This document shows positions 1 to 5,712 of a stretch of 5,712 nt of DNA, piece after piece (position 1 is the first letter of the stretch; every line of letters begins with the position of its first letter). Source of the DNA: a virus (Duplodnaviria; Heunggongvirae; Uroviricota; Caudoviricetes); IMG/VR virus record IMGVR_UViG_2706794691_000014; one strand, given 5' to 3'. The position numbers and the translations under genes are program-made. The notes below the pieces were generated by a model. It was not told where the DNA came from and ran no database searches. It saw only the letters and a list, made by a program, of their open reading frames with translations.

Positions 1-76
1 ATCAAGAACATAACGAAACATAATTCCCCATTATACGCGCGTATAATGGGGAATTATGTTTCGTTATGTTCTTGAT
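1..76. other. telRL: Protelomerase target site / hairpin-telomere palindrome (telRL-like, N15 family). Perfect 76-bp palindrome centred between positions 38 and 39.
   Basis: Checked by hand: positions 1-38 are the exact reverse complement of 39-76. The central 22 bp (28-49, CCATTATACGCGCGTATAATGG) matches the N15 telO core as I recall it, with an alternating CGCGCG centre. The palindrome starts at window position 1, so any further extension cannot be seen. Confidence 0.8.
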
Positions 77-77
77 T

Positions 78-210
78 AGTGTTCTTATTTAGTGTAATAT
101 TCTCATTTTGTGTACTGCTTTATTTAACATTTAGCTTTAATTCTTTATTTGTGTTCTTTATTATGTTTGCATCATTACTTAGTTTTTGTGTTCTTTATTT
201 GTGTTCTTGT
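78..210. repeat. AT-rich spacer carrying iterated short repeats: an 18-bp direct repeat TTCTTTATTTGTGTTCTT at 141-158 and 191-208, plus related GTGTTCTT(T)ATTT copies at about 80-95 and 188-200.
   Basis: Direct reading of the sequence. Repeated motifs lie between the telomere palindrome and the sopA promoter. Function unknown: possibly accessory protelomerase sites (tos-like) or other protein-binding sites. Confidence 0.5.
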
Positions 211-394
211 ATTGGTAAGGTTGGGAGAACTAATAGAGAAAACGTATCTCATTGATGATTCTTATCATGTTTCCCTAGTTTTACATGATTTCCTTTCTTC
301 AAAAAATATAATAAATATCAATTACTTATGATTATGTTGTTGTTCGTTTTATGCATTTCGGGAGGGGAACAAAAGATGATTTAGCTTAAAAATT

Positions 395-496
395 CTCCTT
401 TGCGTTTTTCTTTTTGCTTTGCCTTTTTCATGCAAATTTGCTAGAAATAAGCAAAGATTTAATTATTAAGCAAAGTTACAAGCTGGAGATGACAGT
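395..496 (+). promoter_or_regulatory. sopA promoter/operator region with CTTTGC hexamer repeats (SopA autoregulatory operator) and ribosome-binding site.
   Basis: CTTTGC at 398-403 and 417-422; its reverse complement GCAAAG at 451-456 and 470-475; variants TTTTGC at 412-417 and ATTTGC at 436-441. GGAG at 484-487 lies 9 nt upstream of the ATG at 497. In F plasmid, SopA binds CTTTGC repeats overlapping the sop promoter (established knowledge). Exact -35/-10 elements not assigned. Confidence 0.6.
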
Positions 497-1663
497 ATGT
501 CTTTGAAAAAGCTATTGCAAGATTGTGTTACGAGAGGTCAAGAAATGACCCAAGCAATTGCTATCGCTCAATTCGGTGATGATAGTCCTGAAGCTCGGCG
601 TATCACCCGCCGATGGGGTATTACTGAAGTAGCAGATTTAATTGGTGTAACTCCTCAAGCAATTAGAGATGCTGAGAAGAGCGGGCGTTTACCTGCACCT
701 GACTTTGAAATGAGAGGAAGAATTGAACGTCGTGCTGGTTATACCATAGATCAAATCAACAGTATGCGAGCAGTTTTTGGCAACCCAAACCAACGACCAC
801 AAGATAAAAACCCTGTTGTTCTTGCCGTTATGTCACACAAAGGCGGCGTTTATAAAACATCGTCTGCGGTACATCAAGCTCAATGGTTAGCATTACAAGG
901 TCATCGTGTTCTTTTGGTTGAAGGTAACGATCCTCAAGGTACAGCCTCTATGTATCACGGTTATGTTCCTGATTTACATATCCATGCCGAGGATACTTTA
1001 CTGCCATTTTACTTAGGAGAACGCGATAACGCTGAATATGCTATAAAGCCAACATGTTGGCCTGGGCTAGACATTATCCCTAGCTGCCTAGCTTTACATC
1101 GTATAGAAACAGATCTCATGCAATATCATGCTCAGGGTAAATTGCCTCATCCTCCACACCTTATGCTGCGCGCAGCTATTGAATCAGTTTGGGATAACTA
1201 CGATGTTATCGTTATAGATAGTGCTCCGAACCTCGGTACAGGAACCATTAACGTTGTTTGTGCCGCTGACGTTATTGTTGTTGCTACACCTGCAGAATTA
1301 TTTGATTACGCTTCTGTTCTACAGTTTTTCACAATGCTTCTCGATCTATTGGAAAGCGTTGACCTAGGTGGATTTGAGCCAACCGTTCGCTTACTTCTGA
1401 CTAAATATAGTCTCACTACAGGGAATCAATCACGATGGATGGAAGAACAAATAAGAAATACATGGGGATCAATGGTATTACGTCAGGTTGTACGCGTTAC
1501 CGATGAAGTAGGTAAAGGCCAGATAAAAATGAGAACAGTATTTGAACAAGCAGCAAACCAACGTTCAACATTGAATGCATGGAGAAATGCTGTTTCTATA
1601 TGGGACCCTGTTTGCAGAGAAATTTTTGATGATCTAATAAAACCTCGCTGGGAGAACGAATAA
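497..1663 (+). CDS. sopA: Partition ATPase SopA (type Ia ParA family) with an N-terminal HTH DNA-binding domain and a deviant Walker A box.
   Basis: 388-aa ORF. Deviant Walker A KGGVYKTS at residues 115-122 (nt 839-862). Long stretches match F plasmid SopA as I recall it (EMTxAIAIAQFxDDSPEARxITRRW; LLVEGNDPQGTASMYHGxVPDLHIHAEDTLLPFYLGE; KPTCWPGLDIIPSCLALHRIET; YDVIVIDSAPNLGxGTINVVCAADV; GKGQIxMRTVFEQA; KPRWE). Good RBS. Stop codon overlaps the sopB start. Confidence 0.95.
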   Translation: MSLKKLLQDCVTRGQEMTQAIAIAQFGDDSPEARRITRRWGITEVADLIGVTPQAIRDAEKSGRLPAPDFEMRGRIERRAGYTIDQINSMRAVFGNPNQRPQDKNPVVLAVMSHKGGVYKTSSAVHQAQWLALQGHRVLLVEGNDPQGTASMYHGYVPDLHIHAEDTLLPFYLGERDNAEYAIKPTCWPGLDIIPSCLALHRIETDLMQYHAQGKLPHPPHLMLRAAIESVWDNYDVIVIDSAPNLGTGTINVVCAADVIVVATPAELFDYASVLQFFTMLLDLLESVDLGGFEPTVRLLLTKYSLTTGNQSRWMEEQIRNTWGSMVLRQVVRVTDEVGKGQIKMRTVFEQAANQRSTLNAWRNAVSIWDPVCREIFDDLIKPRWENE

Positions 1664-2628
1664 TGAAACAGCGCTCTCTTCTAAAAAATGCTCCAGATAT
1701 TAATCGCATTATGAGTAATAATCATCATGCCCCTGAACATCAGCCCGTATCACCTATGGTTGGTGATTTAAAACGTCAACTGAGTTCATTAACCGGTAAC
1801 AGCATAACTTTGCCAGTATGCGGACGTAATGTTAACTTTAAGTTAGAGACAATTCCCGCAGATAAAGTTGAAATGGCAACAATGGTATGGCTAGGTAATG
1901 AACGCGATCAAGATTTATTAAATGAATCCTCTCTAGCCGATTTAATCCCATCTTTTCTAACGTCTGGACAACAAAATCCAGCTTTCGCCAGAAAAGTATC
2001 TGGAATCGTTGAAGTCGCTGACGGCTCACGTAGAAGAAAAGCAGCGATATTAACAGGATGTGACTATCGCGTCTTAATTGGTGATCTCGACGATGAACAG
2101 ATGCATTGGTTATCCCAAATTGGTAACGATTATAGGCCTATTAGTGCATACGAAAGAGGAAAGAGATACTTACGCAAGCTAAATGACTTTGATGGTAACG
2201 TTAAAGCATTGGCCGAGGCTGAAAATATAGATAGAAATATTATCACTCGCTGTATTAATACAGCTGGTCTACCAAAAGATATATTAGCTATCTTCAATCA
2301 TCCAGGAGAACTGTCAGCTCGTGCTGGAGATTCTTTGTTTAAGATTTACAAAAAAAACATGGCTGCCATGAGCAATGCTGCTCATCATCTTCTGACAATA
2401 AAAAAAAACGGCGAGGATTTAGAAGCTTCACGGATTATACAAATATTATCTGACTCTGTTCTGGTTGGCGACGAGGAAAAAACAAAAGACGAGAAAAAAT
2501 ATGGGGAAGGGATCACGGCTAGATATAAAGGGAATTTTGTAACTATAAAAATTGATAGCCGCAAAATATCTAAAGAAATACTAAGCAAAATTGAGTTGTT
2601 ACTAGAGGAACAATCTACTGATAATTAA
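1663..2628 (+). CDS. sopB: Partition centromere-binding protein SopB (ParB family).
   Basis: 321-aa ORF. ATG at 1663-1665 overlaps the sopA TAA (1661-1663) as TAATG, indicating translational coupling. Matches recalled F SopB motifs (NAITLPVCGRxVxFxLE; WxGNERDQxLL; LIPSFLxTGQQxPAFxRxVSGxxExADGSRRRKAA; DYRVLxGxLDDEQM; LGNDYRPxSAYERGxRY; NIxRxIITRCINTAxLPK; FxHPGELSARxGD). Same order and size as the F/N15 sopAB operon. Confidence 0.93.
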   Translation: MKQRSLLKNAPDINRIMSNNHHAPEHQPVSPMVGDLKRQLSSLTGNSITLPVCGRNVNFKLETIPADKVEMATMVWLGNERDQDLLNESSLADLIPSFLTSGQQNPAFARKVSGIVEVADGSRRRKAAILTGCDYRVLIGDLDDEQMHWLSQIGNDYRPISAYERGKRYLRKLNDFDGNVKALAEAENIDRNIITRCINTAGLPKDILAIFNHPGELSARAGDSLFKIYKKNMAAMSNAAHHLLTIKKNGEDLEASRIIQILSDSVLVGDEEKTKDEKKYGEGITARYKGNFVTIKIDSRKISKEILSKIELLLEEQSTDN

Positions 2629-2632
2629 GAAT

Positions 2633-2655
2633 TATCCCCTGCATTGCAGGGGATA
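2633..2655. terminator. Inverted repeat (10-11 bp arms, ATCCCCTGCA-T-TGCAGGGGAT) between convergent sopB and tfa. Candidate bidirectional intrinsic terminator; alternatively a SopB-binding centromere-like site.
   Basis: Arms 2634-2643 and 2645-2654 are exact reverse complements, with a GC-rich core (CCCCTG/CAGGGG). It sits in the 32-nt gap between the sopB stop (2626-2628) and the tfa stop (2661-2663, minus strand). Flanking U/A-rich tracts on both strands are only moderate. Confidence 0.45.
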
Positions 2656-2660
2656 TTGAT

Positions 2661-3236
2661 TTATGGTTGACTTGGCCACTCGATATCTGGAGATAGTGAT
2701 GTATCAACACGATTCAACAACACCCGATATGTCTTCCATGCGGCCAGTAACGATTTCTCTTCCTCCGTTGCGATCTCAAGATCTACCGCATCCTGAAGCG
2801 GCGCAATATGCTCACTGGCTACCTGCATCAGGCTGTTTTTTGTTTCTTCCGCCTCCCGGATCCGGAATAGTTTTTCTGCTTCTGCATCTTTCACCCAGGC
2901 TGTGCCGTTCCACTTCTGATATTCCCCTTCCGGCGATAACCAGGTAACATTTTCCGGTAACGGACCGAGTTCAGAAATAAATAACGCGTCCCCTGATGCC
3001 ACGTCATAAACTGTTTTACCCCGATGGTCTTCAACAAGATGCCACGATGCATCATCACTGTTGAAAACAGCCACGAAGCCAGCCGGAATATCTGGCGGTG
3101 CAATATCGGTACTGTTTGCTGGCAGACCTGTATGAGGCGGAATGTATGCGTCACCTTCACCAATAAATTCATTAGTTCCGGCCAGCAGATTATAAATTTT
3201 TATGGTCCGTGGTTGTTCACTCATTCTGAATGCCAT
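2661..3236 (-). CDS. tfa: Tail fibre assembly protein (lambda Tfa family chaperone).
   Basis: 191-aa ORF. The N-terminal ~170 residues ([61 protein letters not shown]...) closely match lambda Tfa and E. coli cryptic-prophage Tfa proteins as I recall them. Start ATG (3234-3236, minus strand) overlaps the stf stop as TAATG. Lies immediately downstream of stf, as in lambda. Confidence 0.92.
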
Positions 3237-5712
3237 TATGCAAGCCTCACAATATAGTTAAATGCGATGTTTTTGACGGTGTTTTCCGCGTTACCAGCAG
3301 CGTTAACGGTGATGGTGTGTCCATGTGAACCAATCGCAACGGAGTGCGTATGAGCACCAATACCGACAGTATGCGCGTGTGCACCTGCAGATGCTGCTGT
3401 GCCGGACAGTGAGTGGCTATGATTACCATCTGTACTGGTATTAGCTAACCACCCCGTAGACATACCTACTGAGCCTTGTACACCCCAGGTATTTTGACCT
3501 GAGCTTGTATAACCATATTGATAAGTATCTTTAAAAACACTGGGGTTAAATCGACGGCCATCTCTATGGCTGTGATTACCAGCTGCATTCGTGCTGCCAC
3601 TTAAACTATGGGTATGCGCACCAGTGTTATTCGTGGATTTAGTGCCGTAATCAAACGACGATGTGGTTTTCGTCCCCAAATCCGTACTGGATGCGCTGGC
3701 GCTGTGGGTATGCGATTTAATGCCGTCCTGTTCCTGAGACAATACGGCCCGACCACTGGCAGGTTTGCCCTTAATCGTCCAGCCACGCATATCAGGGATC
3801 ACGCCTGACGGATAAGCCGCTGCAAGTTTCGGGTATGCAGATTTGTCAAAAGCCTGCCCCTGCATCAGGGCATAGCCAGACGGAACGGTATCTGATGGCC
3901 ACGGGATTGGTGCGCCAGGCGGATAAAACTGCTCTGATGGCGTATAGAGTGAATAAACTGTACCGTCCGTTAACCCTTCCGGCTTATTAGCAGAATATGC
4001 TGGTGACGTATGAATCGTCACGCTGGCATTACTGGTATAATCCCATTGAATATTTACACCAGTCGCATAATTTCCGATTGCAACGTAAATATCGTAAGTA
4101 TCACCAGATGTATTAACCCAGGCAAAATTTGTAAACCCTGTCAATGTGCGCTGCCATAAAGCACCAGTAATCCCCTTCGGATTACCATTACCTGCACGTA
4201 AAACAAGTTCAGATATACCTGCCTGTTGAGGTGACCCCACGTTAAATCCAGCGCCACCAATCAACGTAATTGAAACAACAGAACTCGCCTGTGGCATGGT
4301 TACCGTTGCTAATTTGAACCAACCAGCACCACCGCTGAATGACATTGTTGTTGAGTTAAGCGTACCAATATCTTTCGGCGTCAGTGTTATATCCGCTGAA
4401 AGCGCCTTACCATTCACCTTACGGGCAGAAGGTACCCGACCATTCGCATTGTCATTAGCTGCTTTCACTGCTTTCGGTGTCGCAGCAAGCGTTTCAGATG
4501 TGCTGTTGGTTGCACTACTGAGCTGGACAATTCCTTTTTGTGCTGTCGTAGCGTCCTGTGCGGTGTATTTCCCGTTAGCCAGGTCATACGCGGCCTTAAC
4601 GGCTTTTGGCGTTGCCGCCTGTGACTCGGAAGTGCTGTTAGTCGCACTGCTGAGCTGAACTATCCCTTTCTGTGCTGTCGTTGCATCCTGTGCGGTGTAT
4701 TTCCCGTTAGCCAGGTCATACGCGGCCTTAACGGCTTTTGGCGTTGCCGCCTGTGACTCGGAAGTGCTGTTGGTCGCACTGCTGAGCTGTACTATCCCCT
4801 TTTTCGTCGTGCTCGCATCCTCAAGCGCCACGGCGGATGCAATATCCTCTGCCCGTTTTGCTGCTGTCTCGGCGCGCGTTGCCGCGGATTCCGCCGTACT
4901 TTTGCTCNNNNNNNNNNNNNNNNNNNNNNNNNNNNNNNNNNNNNNNNNNNNNNNNNNNNNNNNNNNNNNNNNNNNNNNNNNNNNNNNNNNNNNNNNNNNN
5001 NNNNNNNNNNNNNNNNNNNNNNNNNNNNNNNNNNNNNNNNNNNNNNNNNNNNNNNNNNNNNNNNNNNNNNNNNNNNNNNNNNNNNNNNNNNNNNNNNNNN
5101 NNNNNNNNNNNNNNNNNNNNNNNNNNNNNNNNNNNNNCTCAGAGTCTGCCGCAGCTGAGGCGCTCTGTTCCGCTGCCGTTTCAGAAGACTTAGCATTCGT
5201 CTCGGACGTTTTTGCCGCCTTCACGGAATTTCCTGCCGCCGTTGCCGAGGAGGCTGCACTGCTGGCGCTTGTGGAGGCGTTCGTTTCTGATGATTTTGCC
5301 GCCTCTTTGGAGGCCGCCGCATCTCTGGCTGAAGTGGCGGCTTCTGACGCTTTCGTTGTCGCAGTGGATGCAGAAGTGGCTGCTGATTTTTGTGACGCTG
5401 CAGCATTCGTTTCTGACGTTTTCGCCGCACCGGCACTGGTGGCCGCCGCGCTTTTTGAGGACTCTGCAGCGGCAGCACTTTTTGATGCTTCAGTGGCCTT
5501 TGTTGATGCCGTTCCTGCGCTGGAAGACGCCTCCTGAGCCGAAGTCGCGGCCTGTCCGGCTGACGTGCTGGCTGCACGCGCTGAGCCTGCAGCATCAGTC
5601 GCATGGGTTGCCGCCTCACGGGCAGATGTGCCGGCATCACTGGCTGACTTCTTCGCGGCTGCCGTGTTCTGTGCCACCGCGGACGCGTTACGCGCCACCT
5701 CTTCCACCATCA
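3236..5712 (-). CDS. stf: Side tail fibre protein (lambda Stf-like), 5'-partial: the true start lies beyond the window end. Interrupted by a 230-nt N run at 4908-5137.
   Basis: Open frame runs to the window edge. The ATG at 5708-5710 corresponds to the internal [13 protein letters not shown] segment of lambda Stf (about residue 118 as I recall), so the N-terminus is missing. Ala/Ser/Thr-rich N-terminal region; three copies of the conserved [15 protein letters not shown]...AATPKAVK fibre motif; C-terminal HxH-rich region ending [31 protein letters not shown], which matches the lambda Stf C-terminus. Central domain differs from lambda (mosaic). Confidence 0.9.
4555..4818. repeat. Near-perfect tandem duplication of a 132-bp unit (4555-4686 and 4687-4818) inside stf, encoding two 44-aa copies of the [14 protein letters not shown] fibre repeat. 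A third, more divergent copy lies at about 4430-4554.
   Basis: Direct comparison: the two units are identical apart from a handful of substitutions (for example GTTAGTCG vs GTTGGTCG, and the last ~25 nt of each unit). Period 132 nt is in frame (44 codons). Confidence 0.85.
4908..5137. other. Run of 230 N: assembly/scaffold gap or masked sequence inside the stf coding region.
   Basis: Contiguous N characters from 4908 to 5137, flanked on both sides by Ala/Ser/Thr-rich low-complexity coding sequence on the minus strand. Confidence 0.99.

Follow-up and report, generated by a model that had tools for sequence, protein, structure and literature searches.

The DNA analysed here (the window, meaning the whole stretch of 5,712 nucleotides) contains, in this order, a telomere palindrome, a sopA-sopB operon on the + strand, a two-way terminator, and the genes tfa and 5'-truncated stf on the - strand. 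No tRNA genes were found in the window. The features are as follows.

1-76, no strand: telomere, read here as the telR hairpin end, which turns at 38/39, with 1-38 as fold-back read-through (38 nt); palindrome, telO core
77-397, +: AT-rich subtelomeric spacer, about 29% GC; composition, repeats
398-475, +: predicted sop promoter/operator and SopA autoregulation site; three overlapping inverted CTTTGC-type hexamer pairs
497-1663, +: sopA, type Ia ParA-family partition ATPase with an N-terminal DNA-binding region; NCBIfam, Pfam
1663-2628, +: sopB, ParB-family centromere-binding protein; NCBIfam, Pfam
2633-2655, no strand: two-way intrinsic terminator hairpin between the convergent sop and late operons; stem-loop
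2661-3236, -: tfa, tail fibre assembly chaperone, the last gene of the late operon; Pfam Caudo_TAP
3236-5712 (open past 5710), -: stf, lambda-type side tail fibre gene, its 5' end beyond the window; Pfam

This order is the mirror image of the N15 map (Ravinvirus N15, NC_001901), which runs gene 25 (tail fibre), gene 26, terminator, sopB (-), sopA (-), telRL (24775-24830) and telN (+); module order and relative orientation are the same in the two elements. An earlier note on this DNA had proposed just such an N15 layout of telomere, sopAB and stf-tfa, and all four elements were found in the order and orientation that it gave. It had also put sopAB beside the telomere, in convergent orientation to the late operon, which agrees with the ORF coordinates and strands and with the N15 annotation. 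Its description of the adjacent late genes as a lambda-type stf and chaperone is borne out by Pfam matches and by 72-93% identity to the lambda proteins, and its distance of about 2.6 kb between this host-range cassette and the telomere by the tfa stop codon, which lies 2.6 kb off the palindrome centre.

The sopA-sopB operon spans 497-2628 on the + strand and would be transcribed away from the telomere; the start of sopB overlaps the stop of sopA at 1663. SopA matches the NCBIfam SopA equivalog NF010259 (734.3 bits against a cutoff of 725) and Pfam AAA_31 and CbiA, and is 93% identical in amino acids to N15 gp28 and 100% identical to the SopA of the Escherichia plasmid pAH01-1 (NZ_CP055252.1). 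SopB matches NCBIfam PRK13698 (408 bits against a cutoff of 274) and Pfam SoPB_HTH (8.5e-25). Its amino acid identity to N15 gp27 is 73%, and the exact protein is present in 1474 blocks of public assemblies. The combination of a ParA with an N-terminal DNA-binding extension and a helix-turn-helix (HTH) ParB is that of a type Ia ParABS system.

Upstream of sopA the operator hexamers lie at 398, 417 and 436 in direct orientation and at 432, 451 and 470 in inverted orientation, with a 19-nt period, and each of the pairs 398/432, 417/451 and 436/470 has a 28-bp spacer. The same hexamer-pair arrangement has been described for F, N15 and phiKO2 (PMC8465637). Over the whole window CTTTGC is not enriched (5 copies against 4.5 expected), and the signal lies solely in how the hexamers cluster upstream of sopA, at exact spacings of 19 and 28 nt. 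From the match to the published F/N15 model we predict that the hexamers at 398-475 are the site of SopA autoregulation, where SopA dimers bound to the three overlapping 28-bp-spaced pairs would repress the sop promoter. The F plasmid SopABC system shares the protein families and this CTTTGC operator with its 28-bp-spaced inverted pairs. It differs from the window in that its sopB is followed by tandem sopC repeats.

The window has no copy of the N15 centromere palindrome TGCGACCNNGGTCGCA, and a search of it allowing up to 3 mismatches returned two chance-level matches only. In N15, used as a positive control, the four known centromere sites (PMC7205306) were recovered, and pAH01-1 has five perfect copies and one near copy, all of them outside the region equivalent to the window. 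In both pAH01-1 and N15 the centromere therefore takes the form of dispersed single palindromes and not of an array beside sopB. By analogy with N15 and F, the SopB encoded here may act on N15-type centromere palindromes located elsewhere on the replicon, outside the window.

The hairpin at 2633-2655 has a stem of 10 pairs (6 G-C) closed by a loop of 3 nt, with T-rich tails following it on both strands, and N15 has an annotated stem-loop at the equivalent position (22085-22113). The hairpin separates sopB from the end of the late operon. This palindrome was also considered as a centromere beside sopB, but it is unlike the N15 inverted repeat and a two-way terminator explains it better. On the telomere side of the operon, the spacer contains four same-strand copies of GTGTTCTT at 79-208, compared with 0.16 expected in the whole window, and N15 has similar TGTTCT-type motifs at the same place. 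These repeats are putative additional binding sites for the protelomerase or for an architectural protein. Two small ORFs in 77-496 (79-255 and 149-331) were considered as extra genes and judged spurious, as they lie in repeat-rich DNA of 29% GC.

The two late genes, stf and tfa, the last of their operon, would be read towards the telomere and set the accessory host range of the virion. Tfa (Caudo_TAP, 4.8e-44) shares 92.7% identity with lambda Tfa and 94% with TfaQ; it matches the Tfa of pB16EC0268-3 (CP088810.1) at 100% and has no significant match to N15 gp25. The sole Rfam match in the window, IS009, falls inside the tfa coding sequence; this family was probably built on the tfa remnant of a cryptic prophage. 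Stf has three Pfam Phage_fiber_2 matches together with Collar and Phage_fiber, and is 82% identical to lambda orf-401 and 72% identical to orf-314 over the C-terminal approximately 230 amino acids that align. The first approximately 108 codons of stf are missing, and the window enters at residue 109 of full-length homologues. The N-terminal attachment domain lies outside the window; relatives with a full-length Stf have PF08400 (phage_tail_N). Within stf there are three 132-nt tandem repeats at 4440-4835 and a run of 230 Ns at 4908-5137, across which the reading frame is maintained.

A chromosomal Qin-type Stf matches the C-terminal 556 amino acids of the window's Stf at 99.6% identity, and residues 109-299 of that same protein align with the N-terminal part. 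Relative to the plasmid relatives, mosaic breakpoints are found near 3900 and near 4700. The stf gene is a mosaic that chromosomal Qin-type prophages have as well. The Stf proteins of lambda and of Qin/Rac-type cassettes have the same N-terminal shaft and C-terminal tip types as that of the window, and what differs is the setting: the cassette lies beside sopB on a linear plasmid prophage here, beside the b region in lambda and beside pinQ in Qin.

The best match thus switches inside stf, and we considered whether the window from about 3900 on could be an assembly chimera, in which the tfa and stf tip of the phage-plasmid were joined to a chromosomal Qin-type stf of the same genome through an identical tract common to both stf genes. 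At 3860-4760 the sequence matches a chromosomal stf, that of E. coli L725, at approximately 100% identity, and CP088810.1, the closest backbone relative, at just 39-60%, while 3260-3710 is identical in L725 and CP088810.1 and 3711-3860 is 97-99% identical. Such a chimera would also be in keeping with the N run and with the frequency of stf-like sequence, which occurs in 4920 of 5426 complete E. coli genomes. On the other hand, the same stf type is found beside sopB in CP088738.1 (97.25% over 3235-4907) and in the metagenome contig L021 (97.4% over 3636-4669), the cassette beside sopB varies among near-identical backbones anyway, and the frame is intact across the Ns. Because the same stf type occurs in other phage-plasmid records and the cassette is variable, natural recombination explains the data equally well. 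We therefore regard a chimera as unlikely, although the N run and the switch of best match leave room for an assembler to have joined part of stf.

In our preferred reading, stf and tfa are exchanged with chromosomal lambdoid or defective prophages by recombination. Among backbones that are approximately 99-100% identical through the telomere and sopAB, the contents of the interval between sopB and lom vary, and include different stf shafts and tips, a macro-domain gene, a type III effector gene (espS), an invertase and an S74-peptidase fibre. We speculate that this interval, a few kb from the telR hairpin, is the main variable locus of the lineage, and that the window, as it appears, acquired its stf when a Qin-type defective prophage resident in the host recombined with it across a near-identical tract of approximately 600 nt, within which 3260-3710 is identical; taken as a whole, we would as readily doubt this reading as accept it. 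If it is true, a linear plasmid prophage changes its host range by drawing on whatever cryptic prophages its current host contains. A cassette at the telomere-proximal end of the late operon that is swapped with chromosomal prophages would bear on the prediction of phage-plasmid host range.

The palindrome at 1-76 is perfect, with arms of 38 and 38 nt, and as single-stranded DNA it folds with -38.1 kcal/mol (z = -15.9 against shuffled sequences). Positions 28-49 are identical to the 22-bp telO core of N15, CCATTATACGCGCGTATAATGG. The uncut telRL of pAH01-1 has arms that match perfectly over 21 nt only and then diverge, as the left and right flanks differ; the inner 42-bp palindrome is common to this telRL and the window. 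Bases 1-17 of the window are the exact reverse complement of 60-76, that is, of the sop-side flank, and do not match the telL flank of pAH01-1, which contains …TCAGCACATAATTCCCC…. Since the arms of the window show no mismatch over 38 nt, as far as its edge, and the outermost 17 bases are a mirror image of the sop flank, the palindrome is, on sequence evidence, a read-through of a resolved telR hairpin and not an uncut telRL. Such a read-through implies that the linear form of the plasmid was the source of the DNA. A replicated telomere junction (telRR) that had been sequenced would account for the fold-back equally well; it has the same sequence as a hairpin read-through and likewise implies the linear form. 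The telomere site of the earlier note thus stands as a palindrome with the N15 telO core, but its form is that of a hairpin read-through. Following what is established for N15, a TelN-type protelomerase would cut the telRL palindrome and rejoin it as a hairpin, in which the strand turns back at 38/39 as a covalently closed end, and bases 1-38 would represent sequencing or assembly read-through around it.

An uncut telRL, from the phage or a circular form, would have telN just to the left of the window as in the N15 virion map. Assemblies of some relatives (pAH01-1 and the contigs L017 and L023) do show telN beside the site, and the inner 42-bp palindrome is the same in both forms. The match of 1-17 to 60-76, which is unlike the telL flank of pAH01-1, makes this very improbable for the window, as does the finding that records with telN adjoining the site, that is, in the telRL form, align with the window from base 17 or 18 onward only. 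Long-read records of the same element (CP088810.1 and L014-L021) have giant inverted duplications centred on the telomere site, which are what reads running round a hairpin would give. Hairpin fold-back may thus explain public records that are labelled circular or that are inverted duplications of 60-90 kb, and a hairpin end can be recognised in a short contig where the palindrome arms are perfect past the point at which the true telL and telR flanks diverge.

Neither telN, repA nor a centromere lies within the window itself; their presence on the same molecule is suggested by near-identical relatives. The closest record, CP088810.1, is 99.87% identical to window positions 1-3916, and pAH01-1 is 96.7% identical to positions 18-5712. 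The 46.9-kb pAH01-1 has a complete set of lambda-type head and tail genes, along with telN, a RepA of the CyRepA1 family, an XRE-family regulator, and Cro/CI-family and Q genes; its TelN and RepA are 77% and 75% identical in amino acids to those of N15. The contigs L017 and L023, which contain the exact SopB, encode a 631-aa protelomerase (TelK_N, TelK_muzzle, ResT-TelK_cat and TelK_stirrup domains) and a 1331-aa RepA across the telomere; lom, J and more tail genes of lambda type lie on the other side. The E. albertii plasmid pEA26_5 (NZ_CP117614.1) has no telN annotated, but the gene is present at 3-1919, clipped by the start of the record. The earlier note would have been contradicted by a circular plasmid or chromosomal prophage lacking a protelomerase and a linear-replicon replication module; the closest relatives have both. 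That the window instead derives from a circular sopAB plasmid or an integrated lambdoid prophage with the palindrome and without protelomerase-based linear maintenance is scarcely credible, for although most relatives' database records are labelled 'circular' and L017 puts the element at the end of a 3.8-Mb chromosomal contig, the 'circular' labels accompany inverted-duplication artefacts or records cut at the telomere, protelomerase genes adjoin the site in relatives with an identical SopB, phage PhiR46_1 (PV340565.1) was deposited as linear with an annotated telR end, and the telO core matches exactly the N15 site that was defined by experiment.

We conclude that the window very probably belongs to an N15-like phage-plasmid prophage of Escherichia that is linear and hairpin-ended, and forms the outermost 5.7 kb of its sop-side (telR) arm. 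The module is carried by 25 Escherichia plasmid records in PLSDB and by 15 of the 5426 complete E. coli genomes, and a 2025 preprint (bioRxiv 10.1101/2025.09.12.675607) reports elements of this type. The earlier note was right to assign it to a known family of elements, as dozens of records hold the lineage. Its suggestion of a distinct N15-like lineage applies relative to N15 itself, from which the window differs at 73% nucleotide identity in sopAB, and does not extend to novelty: going by these comparisons, the lineage is distinct from N15 yet already known. The window is ordinary because publicly available plasmid and phage records already contain this element; as a discovery it matters little, and its value is practical. 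It indicates that the N15 architecture, with a telomere, an autoregulated sopAB that has no adjacent centromere and a convergent late operon, holds in a lambda-structured Escherichia lineage.

The Escherichia N15-like plasmids and phage (CP088810.1, NZ_CP055252.1, NZ_CP117614.1 and PV340565.1) have the same backbone and the same order of telomere, sopA, sopB, tfa, stf, lom and J. Only the middle of stf (approximately 3900-4700) differs, where the window matches chromosomal Qin-type stf, and several of these relatives carry, between stf and tfa, a macro-domain gene with no counterpart in the window. PhiR46_1 represents a more distant sub-lineage (88% nucleotide identity, SopB 83%). No paper was found behind the PhiR46_1 record, and the TAPE paper gives no detail on tos repeats. 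N15 shares the sop operator type and the dispersed centromere palindrome, but its outer telomere repeats differ and its late operon ends in gene 25, a different tail fibre, and the umuD-like gene 26 rather than in lambda stf-tfa. More distant still are the phages phiKO2 and NAR688 of Klebsiella and PY54 of Yersinia, which have the same lifestyle and homologous sopAB beside the telomere (74-77% nucleotide identity for phiKO2 and NAR688, 65% for PY54); their structural and tail genes differ, and similarity to the window at the megablast level is confined to sopAB.

The ORFs, repeats and family matches of the window confirm the content, order, orientation and distances reported in the earlier note, and its interpretation is correct once the form of the telomere is amended. 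The layout is as follows, with the basis of each assignment in brackets.

1-76, perfect palindrome of 38+38 nt (repeat search)
77-496, + strand, AT-rich stretch, GC about 29% (composition)
497-1663, + strand, sopA (ORF listing)
1663-2628, + strand, sopB (ORF listing)
2633-2655, hairpin with T-rich tails on both strands (hairpin analysis)
2661-3236, - strand, tfa (ORF listing)
3236-5710, - strand, stf, running off the window (ORF listing)

The suggested likeness to the N15 map holds, as the window is a mirror of the annotated N15 order: gene 25 (tail fibre), gene 26 (umuD-like), stem-loop, sopB(-), sopA(-), telRL at 24775-24830 and telN(+). The terminal genes of the N15 late operon, however, differ from those of the window. 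Neither telN nor repA is found in the window. In contigs with the exact SopB (L017 and L023), a 631-aa protelomerase with TelK-type Pfam domains and a 1331-aa RepA lie beyond the telomere, and lom, J and more lambda-type tail genes lie on its near side. The 46.9-kb Escherichia relative pAH01-1 (NZ_CP055252.1) has telN, a CyRepA1-family RepA, an XRE-family regulator, Cro/CI-family genes and Q; it also has lysis genes, terminase, lom, stf and tfa, and its set of lambda-type head and tail genes is complete. Its TelN and RepA are 77% and 75% identical to those of N15. The L017 contig (CAXHUB010000001.1, 3.8 Mb) ends, at about 3.75-3.81 Mb, in what looks like a complete copy of the element, in the telRL form with telN; either this copy is integrated or it was misjoined in scaffolding.

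The N15 telO core recurs unchanged at window positions 28-49. The pAH01-1 site between telN and sopA is an uncut telRL, in which complementarity of the arms is perfect over just 21 nt, after which the telL and telR flanks diverge. In the window all 38 nt of the arms are complementary, as far as base 1, and bases 1-17 mirror the sop-side flank and differ from the telL flank. Where telN adjoins the site, the alignment of a record to the window starts only at base 17 or 18. The complete complementarity and the mirrored flank indicate that the left 38 nt would be a read-through round a closed hairpin or its sequence equivalent, a replicated telRR junction; the source DNA was, on this sequence evidence, the linear plasmid form. 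The telomere proposed in the earlier note is present, but its perfect 38-nt arms point to a hairpin end rather than an uncut site. The same effect on a larger scale would explain several public records of 60-96 kb, including CP088810.1, NZ_CP104505.1 and metagenome contigs, that are inverted duplications centred on the telomere site. Within the AT-rich DNA bordering the telomere, GTGTTCTT has four same-strand copies at 79-208 (+), against 0.16 expected across the whole window. N15 has TGTTCT-type motifs at the matching position, and the copies may be additional protelomerase-binding repeats.

Both partition proteins exceed curated NCBIfam equivalog cutoffs (SopA 734 against 725, SopB 408 against 274). 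Four of the window's five CTTTGC hexamers fall within 398-475. When one-mismatch copies are included, direct hexamers at 398, 417 and 436 and inverted hexamers at 432, 451 and 470 form three pairs upstream of sopA, each with a 28-bp spacer. The partition promoters of F, N15 and phiKO2 have the same arrangement, which serves as the binding site of three ParA dimers (PMC8465637), and the N15 hexamers are placed as in the window. The search pattern TGCGACCNNGGTCGCA, derived from the N15 centromere palindromes (PMC7205306), recovered the four N15 sites and found five perfect copies and one near copy in pAH01-1, every one outside the window-equivalent region; none was found across the window. The window thus carries sopAB with a predicted operator but no centromere, an arrangement that it shares with N15. 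SopA (497-1663) is 93% identical to that of N15 (L006, 23152-24315) in amino acids, 77% in nucleotides and 44% at third codon positions, and the divergence of SopB (73% identity), TelN (77%) and RepA (75%) from N15 is far greater. SopA is thus under strong purifying selection and unusually constrained.

Window 1-3916 is 99.87% identical to plasmid pB16EC0268-3 (CP088810.1), and the telomere-sopAB module occurs in 25 Escherichia plasmid records in PLSDB and in 15 of 5426 complete E. coli genomes. An identical SopB is found in 1474 blocks of public assemblies, on contigs mostly of 2-10 kb, a size consistent with breaks at the hairpin and the repetitive stf. The phage PhiR46_1, a more distant member, is deposited as linear with its telR end annotated. 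According to a 2025 preprint, Escherichia, Shigella and Salmonella have N15-like phage-plasmids whose structural genes are lambda-like, whose plasmid genes are like those of phiKO2 and NAR688, and whose differences lie mostly in the tail genes (10.1101/2025.09.12.675607). The lineage is therefore separate from N15, as the earlier note had thought possible, with sopAB just 73% identical in nucleotides. It is not new: the family is known, the sub-lineage has been deposited and described before, and the element would not surprise a specialist.

Tfa matches Pfam Caudo_TAP and has 92.7% identity to its lambda counterpart. Three Phage_fiber_2 repeats and a Collar domain are recognised in Stf, which starts in the window at residue 109 of full-length homologues; its pieces are 82% identical to lambda orf-401 and, over the alignable C-terminal ~230 aa, 72% identical to orf-314. 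In the Stf shaft, the 44-aa Phage_fiber_2 units are encoded by three tandem 132-nt repeats at 4440-4835, which match the reference copy at 100%, 77% and 63% identity. A full-length match to Rfam RF02111 'IS009' (2695-2893, - strand, 199 bits) lies wholly within the tfa coding sequence; this family probably models a cryptic-prophage tfa remnant, not an independent RNA gene. The stf-tfa part is shared with chromosomal lambdoid prophages, at up to 98-99% identity, and 4920 of 5426 complete E. coli genomes have some match, the best chromosomal ones being Qin-type loci (ydfK, pinQ, tfaQ, stf, lom, J).

In a sliding comparison, the window from 1 to about 3860 is about 100% identical to CP088810.1, and the Qin-type match, from 2661, is 78% at the tfa 3' end and 95-100% beyond. 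Over 3260-3860 the identities are 97-100% to CP088810.1 and 99-100% to Qin-type stf, and over 3860-4760 they are 39-60% and about 100%. This switch of best match argues that the stf is recombinant. Its reading frame is preserved across a 230-nt N run (4908-5137), whose counterpart in Qin-type Stf spans 131 codons, compared with about 77 in the window, so the run either masks sequence in a shorter repeat region or marks a sized gap. The N run would also fit a join of the two parts by the assembler, but the same stf type occurs on the phage-plasmids CP088738.1 (97.25% over 3235-4907) and contig L021, and we therefore favour natural stf exchange over a chimera.

The contents of the sopB-lom interval vary widely among relatives: stf-tfa; stf, a macro-domain gene and tfa; a short stf with an espS effector gene; stf with small ORFs; an invertase gene; or an S74-peptidase fibre. 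The macro-domain gene (about 297-300 aa), for which fibre accessory and anti-defence are candidate roles, overlaps the stf stop in several relatives (L001, 44098-45000; L003, 6701-7591), unlike the window and CP088810.1, which are without it. The E. albertii plasmid pEA8_3 (L007) has the same telomere-sopAB (99.9%). Downstream of it, a tfa remnant and a shortened stf flank a gene (10494-11369) whose annotation is type III secretion effector EspS and which looks like virulence cargo in a telomere-proximal variable slot. In pZ1323HEC0355-3 (L009), a recombinase-family gene of Pin/Gin-type invertase size immediately after sopB (9639-10193) hints at an invertible tail-fibre switch.
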